DNA of 63,858 bases, the filler included, from Neophaeotheca triangularis (lineage: Eukaryota), in NCBI GenBank assembly GCA_054600435.1. It is 3 parts of 3 records of this genome, joined end to end, with 100 filler letters (N's around TTAATTAATTAA, not from the genome) between each part and the next. Parts side by side here need not be neighbours in the genome. Positions count along the whole stretch, not along the records: positions 1 to 24,416 come from BAAIJX010000113.1; 2 more parts are not named here. One strand, given 5' to 3'. Position 1 is the first letter of the stretch, and every line of letters starts with the position of its first letter. Position numbers and translations under genes: made by a program. The notes under the pieces are model-generated. The model saw only the letters and a list, made by a program, of their open reading frames with translations, was not told the origin of the DNA and searched no databases. Shown here piece by piece: positions 15,548 through 24,416 of this stretch.

Positions 15548-16493
15548 GAAGCTAGGAGACTAGTTTTACTTAGGGAGGTATTATTTATAACAGATATGAA
15601 CAATGTAGTAGGATTAGGAATTAGGTGCGGTCGAGGATTAGGGATTATTCGTAGTAGTTATGAATAATGTGTTAGGGTCAGAAATCGGTCAGGTTAGTCA
15701 TAGTATGTAGAGGCTAATTCAATTAGTCGTAATTCATTCTATATGTCTGTCTAGGTAGGTGTCTAAGATATAAGTACTAGTATAGAGGGAGGTATAGGTA
15801 TATAAAGGGGGTAATAATAAAGCAAATACCGTAAAACTAGTATACCTATAAATGTAGTATAGGAGTTACCATAACATCCCTCTCTAGCTAGAAAGTCTTA
15901 CTACTCTATAGTAGCTACACTACCTTAAACCACTATTAAGTTCTCCTTATCCTATATTTCCTCTATAAGCTCCTCCTATCCTACTAGTATAGCTCCCCTC
16001 TTTCCTTTATCCTATAGTAGTAGAGTAGAGCTAGAACTTTCTAAATAGTAGAATGACTTGTTCTAAAACACCCTTTTCTCTTTATCTCGCTAATATGCCT
16101 AGGCGAGCTCATATACCTTAATAGTATTATCCTAGATTTCCTAAATGTACTTCTAGACATAATATAGGCTCTCTATAGTAATAGTATGTAGTACTTACTA
16201 GACATTAGGGCTTATATACTATAATTTGCTAATAGCTACTCTAGATAAGGCATCCTATACTACTAGATATAGGGTTATAGGAAATAGTGTATAAGGAGCT
16301 CTATACTTAGTAGTATAACTAGAGGCACTTAACGGGCTAGACATGAAGTCGTAGTATGTAGTAGTAATGTCGCTCTACTTTCTACTAGTAGTATTCTAAA
16401 GGTACTTATAGTCTCGGTCGATTCCTATGAACTAGGGTAGGATAGTCATGTATTAGCGAACAGATTTTAATATAGTAGTGCTATAGGGTAGGT

Positions 16494-17031
16494 TGTTACG
16501 AACACTACGCTACGCCTAGCGTACAATGAGGAATGCTTAGTAGAACCCACGGTCATAGGATAGAGCTCATTTAGGTCACGTAATGTGCTCACCTCTACTT
16601 AGTACTTACCTTCAACTAAGCACTACTAAGTAATAGAGTAGTGCTTACCTCTACTCAGTACTCACCTTCAACTAAGCACTACTAAGCAACAGAGTAGTGC
16701 TCACCTCTACTTAGTACTCACCTTCAACTAAGCACTACTAAGCAATAGAGTAGTGCTTATCTCTACTTAGTGCTCACCTTTAACTAAGCACTACGGAGCG
16801 ATAGATCACAACGATTAGAGACACGAATCTCCTTTGTATTTAGGTAGCGACATTTCCTAGATAGAGATTTGTGTTCAACTCATGTTACAATCTTACTAAA
16901 AGGTCTACAGCGACACTTCACATATCTTTGAAATCCTTATGATAAAGGAAACACCCTTACTAGCCTTCTATGATATCTCTCCTCTTCCGCTATGAGCTCT
17001 ACCTATAAGACTACCTTATAGGATCGTAACA
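16494..17031 (+). repeat. 5' LTR (538 bp)
   Basis: TGTTACGA...TCGTAACA terminal inverted repeat; colinear with 23337-23874. Confidence 0.96.
16585..16794 (+). repeat. Tandem array of ~3.7 x 56-bp units inside the LTR (second copy at 23428-23637)
   Basis: Units begin at 16585, 16641, 16697, 16753 with GTGCTYACCTCTACTYAGTRCTYACCTTYAACTAAGCACTAC. Confidence 0.93.
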
Positions 17032-17071
17032 CTTTAAACACCCTCTAGGAAAGAGAGATCAATAGGTAAGT

Positions 17072-19291
17072 ATGTCCCTATCCGATAACCGAGACGTAAG
17101 CATCGCTAGCACCTAACGAGGAGTATCGACTATAGCTACTAATAAGGTTGCCAAACTAGACTACTTCTATAGCGAACGTAATAAGCTAGACAACTAGGTC
17201 AACTAGATAATAATATTCTTCCTTATAGAAAGCGTTAGTAAGTAGAAGCAACCTCTTACTACTACTTCTTTCCTTTATGGAGAAGCTTAACACTAGATCC
17301 GCCTAAAGCTTATAGATTTCCTCATAGAACGAATCGACCCTAAAGGACTATTCTCGAACTAGAAGTCTTTTGTTAAGGTTATCTGTAACATCTATAGATT
17401 GAGCAACGATCGACAAGTTACTATCTAAATGATTTAGTACCTCACGTAGAAAACGTCTACCTCTTAGTACACTACTAAATTCTAGGAGCACTTAGCTAAG
17501 ACTAACTAGGACGACAACGCTCTTATAACCATGTACTACTAAGGACTCAAGGACAACATAAAGGACGAACTTATGCGCTACGGAGGCGATTAGTCAACTC
17601 TCCCTAGTATGATCAAATCGGCGATCGAAGTTGATGACGCGCTCTATGAACGGTTTATGGAAAAACGCTACACTAGACAATTTCACAGACGAACTAGCTA
17701 TACTACTAGTAGCCGGCCTATCGGTTAGTAATGTCGCGATCCTAATACGATAGAACTCGACTCCACGTAACAGCGTCCTAGGAAGGGTAGGGATAGAGGA
17801 CGGGGTAAACAGAACGCCCTAGGCAAGAAACGGAACGGACTAGAATGCTATAACTACTACAAGATAGGGCACTATACACGAGACTGCTATGGGAAATAGA
17901 TACGTCCATGATAGGAGGTCAATACGATTTTGACCTAATAGGATAACGACTCTCCTACCGATAAGAGCCGCGGAGCTTACGACATCACCGGAACCTACAA
18001 AGAACCGGAGCATGACGAACTTCACTAGAGGTTTTACAAGAGGGATTACTATTTAGTACACAAAAGTTAGGGACTAGTAACTAACGGAATACCTATTAGA
18101 CCTCGGAAGGAAGTAAACGTTATTGAACGAGTTACCCTAAAGTCCGGAACGGACGCGCTAATCGAGTAATACTAGAAGCTTAGGGAGTTTCACGATAACT
18201 TAGTTAGTCATGAGGAGTAGACTAAAGAACACTTCAACCTCATAATCTAAGTAGCCGATTAGATAGTAGATCTTAACGATAGGATCAAGGCTACAACATA
18301 TAAAGAATCTAAGTAACTACGTAAGCCTTAAAAGGAACTCAACATAATGTTAAGACGCTAACCTCTATAGTAGTCAAGGGACGATAGCAATATAGCCTGA
18401 GGAAGGTCCCTACCTCTATTTGTATAGGAGGACGACAAACTACAAGAAAATCAAGTACTATCATCGACGATAGCACTACTAACACCCGACTTAGACAACG
18501 AAGAAATATCTTAGACACCGGAACTCACTACGATCGTACTAACACTAGAGATTAGCCCCTTAAGACTATCGATATCTCTAGAGATTCTAGAATCGTAAGA
18601 AGACACGACAGTAATAGATTCCGAAGACGACTCCGAATACGAATATACCGACGACGAAGAACCTAACGATAACGACACCTTAGAGTTCATTGTGGAAGGA
18701 CCCACACTAATCAAGAAAATAGTCACCTACATCGCACGATCGTACGAAGAAGTATTCCTAAGGATCTAAGGCAAACGACGCTTAGAACCTAACTAATTTG
18801 AAGCCATACTCATACGATTACGAGCAATATTCTAGGACTACCGAAAGGTCGCCGTCGAGTATAACGCTACTACCTTTATCCAGGATAGGCTACTAATAGG
18901 AAGTACTTTCCACGGAGAAAACAGTTACATTACGCTAGATAGGATACGAATCCTATACACGATAAGACAACGAGTCAAGACAGTCAAGAATCGTTATAGA
19001 GAATTCTAGCTCATATAGGAGTAATGGAGAGAAGGAGAAATCACGCTTCAAGAAATAAAGAAACAAGCATAGAATTCCTTAGACCAATAGACGATAGTAC
19101 TACGCGACAAGTTCTTACTACTAGTCGACCAAAAGATGATTCTCGGACATGTTAAAGCAACTACATGAGGACCCATCACTACACACGTAATCTAAGGAAA
19201 AGTCACGATTAGACCTCGGGACGGACCCCTTTACTAGGAAGTCTCTCTCGAGACAGCGGACTTATCTACCTACTTCTTAAAAAACGAATAG
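17072..19291 (+). pseudogene. gag: gag (RIP-mutated, ~739 codons) with zinc knuckle and long C-terminal extension
   Basis: KVAK(P)DYFY(G)ERNKLD; knuckle ECYNYYKIGHYTRDC at ~17843; frame ends TTA AAA AAC GAA TAG. Confidence 0.85.
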
Positions 19292-23272: not shown

Positions 23273-23336
23273 TAACTATAAAACAAAAGACAGGTAGAGA
23301 ATAAGCTCAGGACGAGCTAGACTAGGAGGGGGATAG

Positions 23337-23874
23337 TGTTACGAACACTACGCTATGCCTAGCGTACAATGAGGAATGCTTAGTAGAACCCACGGTTACG
23401 GGATAGAGCTCATTCAGGTCACGTGACGTGCTCACCTCTACTTAGTACTCACCTTCAACTAAGCACTACTGAGTAATAGAGTAGTGCTCACCTCTACTTA
23501 GTGCTCACCTTTAACTAAGCACTACTGAGTAATAGAGTAGTGCTCACCTCTACTTAGTACTCACCTTCAACTAAGTACTACTGAGCAACAGAGCAGTGCT
23601 CACCTCTACTTAGTGCTTACCTTTAACTGAGCACTATAGAGCGACAGATCATAACGATTAGAGACACGAATCTCCTTTATATTTAGGTAGCGACATTTCC
23701 TAGATAGAGATTTGTGTTCAACTCATGTTACAATCTTACTAAAAGGTCTACAGCGACACTTCACGTATCTTTGAAATCCTTACGATAAAGGAAATACCCT
23801 TACTAGCCTTCTACGATATCTCTCCTCTTCTGCTACGAGCTCTACCCGTGAGACTACCTTATAGGATCGCAACA
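23337..23874 (+). repeat. 3' LTR (538 bp)
   Basis: TGTTACGA...TCGCAACA; the differences from the 5' LTR that I checked are C/T and G/A transitions. Confidence 0.96.
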
Positions 23875-24286
23875 TAGGTATAGATTAGAAACGCGAACTT
23901 TAAAGGCCTTATAAGGGACTAGCTACTACTTTAAACCCTAGGCTAAGAGCTAGTCTTTTAGTAGGTTTGTGTTATCGATAGCTATAATCTCTTTCTTATA
24001 GTCTAGGTTATTAGCGATAAGGAAGTTTATCTACTCCTCTAGGCGCTAGTACATCCCCTTAACTACTATAGTGTAGTCATCCTCGAACTCATTAAGGATA
24101 CTAATGCTACCCTAAATAGTATATATACTAGTGCTATTGTTCTATGTAAACACTAAGTTCAAATTAATATGCCTAAATCTAGTAGAGTCCCTAGGATACT
24201 AGTTCTTAGTGTAATATAGGTAGGACACTAGCTAAAGTAGACTGTTATTATATAAGAGAGTATATAGTAAGATTAGTACTAGGCTC

Positions 24287-24416
24287 TTAGGGTTGTAGGG
24301 TTAGGGTTAGGGTTAGGGTTAGGGTTAGGGTTAGGGTTAGGGTTAGGGTTAGGGTTAGGGTTAGGGTTAGGGTTAGGGTTAGGGTTAGGGTTAGGGTTAG
24401 GGTTAGGGTTAGGGTT
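24287..24416 (+). repeat. Telomere (TTAGGG)19 with variant inner repeats
   Basis: TTAGGG TTGTAGGG then perfect repeats 24301-24414 up to the contig end. Confidence 0.98.

Follow-up and report, generated by a model that had tools for sequence, protein, structure and literature searches.

What gene once stood at the end of a Neophaeotheca triangularis chromosome, and how did it reach its present state? The DNA analyzed here (the window, a stretch of 63,858 nucleotides from assembly GCA_054600435.1) begins with record BAAIJX010000113.1 at positions 1-24416, which is a nuclear chromosome end. Close to the telomere, this record holds a stop-ridden minus-strand frame that is split by a Ty3/gypsy retrotransposon. 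A preliminary description, made from the sequence alone, attributed the frame to a dioxygenase of a multicopy mobile or subtelomeric element. The feature is probably a dead gene copy from an uncharacterized, Pezizomycotina-wide oxygenase family, intact members of which are carried by Ty3/gypsy elements and Helitrons.

Lesions of the oxygenase pseudogene

A profile hidden Markov model of the family (879 positions, built from 134 members) was compared with the 12 reading frames of the two flanks of the retrotransposon. Only two frames matched, in colinear order, and the remaining 10 scored -1.5 bits or lower. The upstream piece (23880..24294, minus strand) aligns profile positions 536-663 with nucleotides 24270-23887 at 71.6 bits and contains 10 TAG stops. 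The downstream piece (15925..16488, minus strand) aligns positions 680-819 with nucleotides 16449-16030 at 51.2 bits and continues in a variable C-terminal tail to about 15925. Between the two matches lies a PHLPHG motif, the site of element insertion. The pieces form one frame from 24294 to about 16030 that is in phase once the retrotransposon and one copy of the sequence TAGGT are removed, as the preliminary description had it. The upstream reading is ...YYTKN*YPRDSTRFRHINLN..., I*GSISI, TIVVKGMY, and the joined frame across the insertion site reads ...KVRVSNLYLPYSTTILKSVR*YMTILP*F....

The 135-amino acid (aa) right-hand piece was used in a phmmer search of 1.84 billion representative proteins and matched 79 of them at E≤1e-3, the best at 4.5e-10 with 34% identity. 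A word-index protein search with the same piece found no relatives, and phmmer against PDB sequences gave eIF6 at E 0.6 and nothing else. Pfam returned no match on either read-through piece or on any frame of the two flanks, because damage by repeat-induced point mutation (RIP) hides the domain from a general model; the less mutated retrotransposon was recognized. A second pseudogene copy was sought within the window and none was found.

The window copy is dead. At the catalytic columns it reads H N Y R where the family has H D H R; the H-x-N codons, formerly H-x-D, lie at 24171-24163 and the distal His codon, now TAT, at 16485-16483, exactly the positions first proposed for these ligands. The pseudogene frame has 28 stops in 328 codons, and the first ~535 profile positions are gone. 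These stops are indeed TAG (25) and TAA (3) only, as had been pointed out, but this property does not distinguish the frame: the other five frames contain 30-48 stops with 0-3 TGA each, since RIP depletes TpG.

The element that splits the frame occupies 16494-23874 (7.4 kb, plus strand). It consists of a 5' long terminal repeat (LTR) of 538 bp at 16494-17031, a RIP-degraded internal part of chromovirus type at 17032-23336, and a 3' LTR of 538 bp at 23337-23874, all on the plus strand. Both LTRs are bounded by TG...CA, and the purine tract AGGAGGGGGA stands just ahead of the 3' copy. Reading through stops, Pfam models identify reverse transcriptase (RVT_1, 1.7e-29), RNase H (RT_RNaseH, 2e-25), the integrase zinc domain (Integrase_H2C2, 3.6e-12), SH3_Tf2-1 (1.3e-09) and a chromodomain (Chromo, 4.4e-10). 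The target-site duplication TAGGT is found at 16489-16493, flanking the 5' LTR, and at 23875-23879, within the codons for P-H-L of the PHLPHG motif. This element was considered as the carrier of the oxygenase gene and was ruled out: its strand is opposite to that of the gene, a target-site duplication of its own sits within the gene, and its polyprotein (pol) is only ~25% identical to the gypsy lineage that carries the oxygenase open reading frame (ORF) elsewhere.

RIP targets duplicated DNA, and its signature is strong throughout this chromosome end. The flanks have TpA/ApT of 1.89-2.14 and (CpA+TpG)/(ApC+GpT) of 0.33-0.36; the corresponding values for the gene-containing DNA on their left are 0.74 and 1.18. 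Over the whole zone from 13932 to the telomere these indices are 1.9-2.3 and 0.33-0.65, and by this measure the flanks carry heavier mutation than the inserted element. The LTRs agree at 499 of their 538 positions and align without gaps, and the 39 differences are all transitions (27 C/T, 12 A/G), indicating that RIP continued after the insertion. Reversal of RIP was evaluated at the 117 alignment columns with a consensus of at least 60%. The window copy is identical to the consensus at 48 columns, and 34 of the 69 mismatches are restored by T-to-C and A-to-G changes alone. Changes in the opposite direction recover 1 of 69, and a pair of equally large transversion sets recovers 9 and 6. Both iron-ligand losses are RIP-reversible (GAT>AAT turned Asp into Asn, and CAT>TAT turned His into Tyr). 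The residue reversions proposed earlier (Asn to Asp, Tyr to His, Leu to Pro, Ser to Gly and stop to Trp) each undo a C>T or G>A change, which together with the RIP indices and the LTR differences bears out the proposed RIP inactivation.

The third lesion is truncation. The telomere repeat (TTAGGG)n occupies 24291..24416 on the plus strand, with a perfect run at 24301-24414, its G-strand running 5' to 3' to the record end and spacer Ns starting at 24417. Judged by the start of the profile match, it cuts the gene at about position 535 of 879. The relic has thus been inactivated three ways, by RIP, insertion and truncation. A telomere capped the chromosome inside the oxygenase gene and left the last ~40% of it; a Ty3/gypsy element afterward entered the PHLPHG motif, duplicating 5 bp; and RIP then hit both the flanks and the insert with C>T and G>A changes, creating the 28 stops and replacing Asp by Asn and the distal His by Tyr. 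The window copy is a commonplace inactive remnant whose chief use is to illustrate nesting, RIP and the healing of a chromosome end by a telomere. It matches the RIP-degraded nested retrotransposon clusters at ascomycete chromosome ends in its AT-rich DNA, TpA excess and transition-only LTR divergence, and equally in its nesting in an older repeat and the telomere repeats at the break; no difference from them was seen.

Sequence and predicted fold of the family

Intact relatives were used to define the protein. A region-restricted search with a cutoff of E≤1e-5 recovered 121 relatives, 512-1631 aa in length and without exception annotated "hypothetical"; a word-index search with the full-length member P0012 was swamped by low-complexity candidates and returned itself alone. 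Among the phmmer matches the full-length proteins are roughly 770-1080 aa, and the window match falls at about residues 440-800; for the family a typical length is some 800-1070 aa. Distribution is patchy and multi-copy. Named sources are Rhinocladiella, Coccidioides, Aspergillus granulosus, Penicillium nucicola, Coleophoma, Alternaria tenuissima, Geoglossum (several paralogues) and lichen fungi, all of which we take to be Pezizomycotina.

From the N terminus onward, the proteins comprise a helical domain, a disordered linker, a C-x-C...C-x-x-H module and an oxygenase domain of the PhyH/DUF1479-like Fe(II)/2-oxoglutarate (2OG) type. The non-enzymatic N-terminal part accounts for ~500 aa. In the full-length model of the protein from locus L012 these correspond to a helical domain at 5-210, a linker at 211-348 and a folded block at 349-866. 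All 20 full-length proteins compared share H644, D646, H744 and R754 (P0012 numbering), nearly all locus ORFs retain them, and the C-x-C...C-x-x-H motif upstream of the triad is invariant or nearly so. R754 lies 10 residues past the distal His, the position expected for the basic residue that binds the 2OG C5 carboxylate. Intact copies would therefore be predicted to bind Fe(II) through H-x-D...H and 2OG through this Arg.

PhyH is the sole Pfam family matched in the members, and weakly: 4 of 16 and 13 of 54 proteins match at E≤0.01, the best at 2.4e-10. The gathering cutoff of PF05721 (22 bits) is reached by two of the 16 (22.8 and 22.5 bits), and a precomputed PF05721 match exists for 11 of 120 listed relatives. 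By these scores, the family appears to be a divergent branch that the PF05721 model covers poorly. The TET_JBP, AlkB-type, Gig2-like and DUF3716 models had no match in the same 16 and 54 members (hmmscan, E≤0.01). A full-length alignment profile searched against the PDB gave only low-complexity or helical noise, and a protein-atlas look-up gave PhyH clusters below threshold (score 0.84) and nothing above it.

Structure prediction was more informative. The AlphaFold model of the 535-aa member P0104 has a predicted local distance difference test score (pLDDT) of 89.0 and a predicted template modeling score (pTM) of 0.85. Foldseek found 218 PDB matches to this model at E≤1e-3, and among the matches listed all are Fe/2OG oxygenases, including proline hydroxylase H11, SnoN/SnoK, EvdO1, GriE, FtmOx1, SptF and DUF1479 proteins. 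A VIA structural scan ranked YbiU first (Z 20.2, 276 residues aligned, root mean square deviation 3.2), followed by GIG2 of Candida (Z 18.9), EvdO1 (Z 15.2), and then KanJ, AsqJ, EctD and human PAHX (Z 13.5). Prolyl hydroxylases scored lower (Z ~10-11), as did the AlkB-type enzymes AlkB, ALKBH3 and NMAD-1 (8.0-8.5) and the thymine hydroxylase T7H (8.2); no TET or JBP chain was among the matches listed. Pfam, the AlphaFold model, Foldseek and VIA agree with the PhyH/2OG-Fe(II) assignment of the preliminary description and identify the family, at the level of sequence and modeled structure, as a PhyH-type double-stranded beta-helix Fe(II)/2OG oxygenase.

YbiU (Yersinia, 4rgk), GIG2 (Candida, 6akz) and PAHX (human, 2a1x) resemble the family in combining the double-stranded beta-helix with extra helical elements and in the pattern of the iron triad and the 2OG-binding Arg. 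They differ in sequence, with 11-12% identity to the family, and no Gig2-like Pfam match occurs in the 70 members. The known DUF1479, Gig2-like and PhyH proteins are also ~250-450-aa stand-alone cellular proteins that are not element-borne. The literature listings searched treat YbiU/DUF1479 as uncharacterized. A separate observation is that one of the better structural matches of the P0104 model is PDB 8fnc chain 14, a trypanosomal RNA-editing RESC-C subunit (Z 14.3, 231 residues aligned); this chain is a PhyH-like fold at work in an RNA-binding complex.

Mobile carriers of intact relatives

The genomic setting of the family was examined in 79 metagenome loci containing a family gene, with the neighboring ORFs clustered. 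The commonest neighbor, located immediately upstream and in the same orientation, is an unusually long Ty3/gypsy polyprotein (2168-2365 aa). It has protease, reverse transcriptase, RNase H and integrase domains, and one of three scanned polyproteins also showed a chromodomain. In 14 of the 79 loci pol is colinear with the family gene, and pol remnants are present in three more. At L012, pol (471-7102) and the family ORF (first Met 7570, stop 10419) lie between two 274-nt LTRs (127-400 and 10470-10743) with 100% identity, TG..CA ends, a purine tract and CTAC at the flanks. Seven additional loci (L021, L033, L042, L049, L058, L067 and L072), on contigs that range from about 12 to 168 kb, have the same two ORFs between LTRs of 91-96% identity spaced ~10.0-10.4 kb apart. 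The carrier gypsy elements are ~10.3-10.6 kb long, and in the eight loci with LTR pairs the family gene is a separate third ORF between pol and the 3' LTR. Terminal repeats on three contigs explain a permuted gene order. Pol is only 35-60% identical among carrier elements, indicating that the arrangement of pol with the oxygenase is old. Three polyproteins of the carrier lineage (L037:362-7456, L046:5116-11841 and L061:1918-8421) have ~800-940 residues before the protease without a Pfam match.

Helitrons are the second carrier. At L044, L047 and L056, the family ORF comes after a RepHel gene (DUF6570, Helitron_like_N, PIF1) and shares its strand. The copies on these three contigs have 77-84% DNA identity across RepHel and the family gene, and the unit recurs at 9705-bp spacing in L056. 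RepHel and the family gene are convergent at L052 and L059. The tie to mobile elements that was suggested for the window feature is accordingly seen among its relatives, in gypsy LTR pairs and in RepHel Helitrons.

Ratios of nonsynonymous to synonymous substitution rates (dN/dS) are 0.07 for the LTR-borne pair L012/L013, 0.11-0.19 for Helitron-borne copies and 0.28 for L052/L059. The element-borne copies are under purifying selection. A family tree was calculated from 68 of 86 alignment rows after eight LTR-borne loci with broken ORFs were dropped and identical or gappy rows were removed; gypsy and Helitron carriers are interleaved in it. Some loci hold more than one family-related ORF: L023 has three (3825-6956, 8651-11608 and 20301-21515), and L024 and L026 are similar. 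The first L023 ORF (1044 aa) has the CxC...CxxH module and no aligned H-D-H-R positions in the profile alignment, and may be a paralogue without the oxygenase part.

The presence of intact relatives between pol and the 3' LTR of Ty3/gypsy elements and downstream of RepHel, under purifying selection, is new. Full-text searching, with subscription journals and Repbase entries outside its scope, turned up no account of PhyH-like oxygenases carried by LTR retrotransposons or Helitrons of fungi, and the terms dioxygenase, oxygenase, PhyH and 2OG are all absent from PMC10799480. One parallel is TET/JBP. PMC12730594 reports TET/JBP genes carried by eleven fungal DNA-transposon lineages, and its named carriers include Kyakuja-Dileera-Zisupton (KDZ), Plavaka, hAT, EnSpm and Helitron. 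These too are Fe(II)/2OG oxygenases with HxD...H that occur as accessory genes of heterogeneous fungal elements, Pezizomycotina Helitrons included, and both groups are presumably kept for the benefit of the element. The window family differs in belonging to another branch of the superfamily (Pfam PhyH, with YbiU and GIG2 nearest) and in its own N-terminal domains. The other parallel is an AlkB-type N6-methyladenosine RNA demethylase ORF in Ty3/gypsy elements of Phalaenopsis orchids, described in PMC9289625, which likewise is an extra 2OG-oxygenase ORF fixed in a lineage of large Ty3/gypsy elements. The hosts are plants rather than fungi, and the enzyme is of the AlkB clade rather than the PhyH/DUF1479-like clade (AlkB-type Z 8.0-8.5). 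According to PMC9289625, activity of the orchid enzyme was shown in vitro, whereas the fungal family is known here from sequence and predicted structure.

Origin, possible role and surroundings of the relic

Several observations weigh against the reading of the window feature as a dead copy from this element-associated oxygenase family. The window shows no pol, second LTR or Helitron component that could be assigned to the oxygenase gene. The RIP-mutated DNA between the last intact gene and the pseudogene (13932..15924; GC 0.35, TpA/ApT 1.98, (CpA+TpG)/(ApC+GpT) 0.36), the roughly 2 kb that follow the pseudogene downstream, has no protein, repeat or LTR match. The tree leaves the window copy unplaced, since its long, RIP-derived branch attaches at the midpoint root. 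Which Arg of the window copy corresponds to R754 is ambiguous because the loop before it differs in length by one residue. Among the 28 loci with at least 6 kb upstream, 13 have no colinear gypsy pol, and one of these, a partial match at L029, sits among ordinary housekeeping genes, so family members are not all element-borne. For the proposed role, the nearest structures are small-molecule or uncharacterized oxygenases, with AlkB-type nucleic-acid enzymes at Z 8.0-8.5 only, and this analysis gave no pointer to a substrate. If the window copy had a carrier, its pol would lie on the side now replaced by telomere. On the opposite side, 13932-15924 might hold the remains of a 3' LTR; a homology and 3' LTR search over 13900-16100 returned a (GTA)n match and purine runs within the ORF, and nothing else. 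The (GTA)n run lies near 15493-15527.

These points leave room for another origin, in which the window copy was never retrotransposon or Helitron cargo and derives from a subtelomeric repeat block, of the kind that contains telomere-linked RecQ helicases, which was duplicated among chromosome ends and for that reason attracted RIP. We consider this origin unlikely but not negligible. The window copy lies directly at the telomere with its 5' end toward it, and at L002 an intact family ORF (7095-9923) faces a (CCCTAA)n tract (2-115) in the same way; these two are the only telomere cases. SNF2-like fragments lie further in from the telomere at L002. A RecQ-type helicase of up to 1465 aa adjoins the family gene in five loci (L048:12658-17052, L045:583-4459, L010, L011 and L020), with OrsD in two of them and two L048 ORFs that have the OrsD zinc-finger domain. 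The RecQ neighbors may resemble telomere-linked helicases, and they occur in varying order and orientation, which speaks against a fixed block. The 13 of 28 evaluable loci without colinear pol fit a subtelomeric block as well. The telomere interrupts the gene, as expected of a breakage-and-healing site and not of a conserved subtelomere layout.

The cassette envisaged in the preliminary description, a DNA-transposon-like or subtelomeric unit of dioxygenase, DUF3716 and an unseen transposase whose enzyme would act on nucleic acid or chromatin, as the KDZ-borne TET/JBP genes do, is improbable. Its premise that the family associates with mobile elements is correct, and two loci have suggestive neighbors: Plavaka transposase ORFs at L060 (2-2281), ~3.7 kb upstream of the family gene on the opposite strand, and a DUF6589 ORF at L054 (11475-14316) directly downstream on the same strand. 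The proposed partner DUF3716 (PF12511) appeared in none of the searches. None of the six frames of 13900-16493 matched it at E≤1, nor did the rest of the window, the 16 and 54 family proteins or the 12 and 55 ORFs neighboring the relatives, the ORFs covered being unspliced and at least 90-130 aa long. TET/JBP kinship fared no better, with PhyH the sole Pfam family in 70 members and the TET_JBP and AlkB-type models unmatched, and the recurrent carriers are LTR retrotransposons and Helitrons, not transposase-bearing elements of the KDZ kind. More improbable still is an ordinary single-copy host metabolic gene of PhyH type that decayed by chance beside the telomere. The fold neighbors are mostly small-molecule oxygenases and the L029 match lies among housekeeping genes, as such a gene would predict. 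RIP, by contrast, acts on duplicated DNA and has mutated the flanks to a greater extent than the inserted gypsy element, and the long non-enzymatic N-terminal part, the patchy multi-copy distribution and the repeated transposable-element context do not suit a metabolic gene.

A dead copy from the oxygenase family with element-borne members remains the favored account of the window feature, and it raises the question of what the enzyme does for its carriers. Extra enzymes are rare in mobile elements; where they are kept, as with TET/JBP and AlkB, the enzyme indicates a host defense to overcome. Here another, unstudied 2OG oxygenase is maintained by selection in fungal LTR retrotransposons and Helitrons. 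The intact proteins are probably active oxygenases serving the element, and would oxidize a substrate to the element's benefit. We can only guess that this substrate is a macromolecule tied to host silencing or to the element's own RNA, DNA or proteins. A target that is part of the host silencing system or the element's own nucleic acid is a tentative suggestion. It is equally speculative, and on present evidence doubtful, that the oxygenase of fungal Ty3/gypsy elements and Helitrons is a counter-silencing enzyme that oxidizes a mark or factor of the Pezizomycotina genome defense, be it a methylated base in DNA or RNA, a methylated residue of a histone, or a protein involved in silencing. If true, mobile elements would have recruited 2OG oxygenases three times independently: as TET/JBP in DNA transposons, as AlkB in plant gypsy elements and viruses, and here, in what would be the first such case among fungal retrotransposons. 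The intact copies found inside elements, for instance at L012, offer a handle on the substrate and on effects on methylation, RIP and heterochromatin.

The genic part of the first record has a GC content of ~0.52 up to 13931, falling to 0.33-0.43 from 13932 to the telomere. Four intact genes lie to the left of the RIP zone: a sugar transporter (802-2079, minus strand), a Tel2-like telomere-length-regulation protein (4380-7487, minus), a metallophosphoesterase-like protein (7893-10238, plus) and, as the last intact gene, an MFS transporter (12604-13928, plus) that ends at 13931. The window joins three records by N44-TTAATTAATTAA-N44 spacers (24417-24516 and 48765-48864). The middle record (24517-48764) is AT-rich (GC ~0.30) and looks mitochondrial, with a ~50-nt T run near 24570 at its start and a cytochrome-b-like frame, recognized by eye, at 25799-26122. 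The last record (48865-63858) is a second nuclear piece and contains a copper-type P-ATPase at 49804-53382 and a CFEM protein at 60482-61330.

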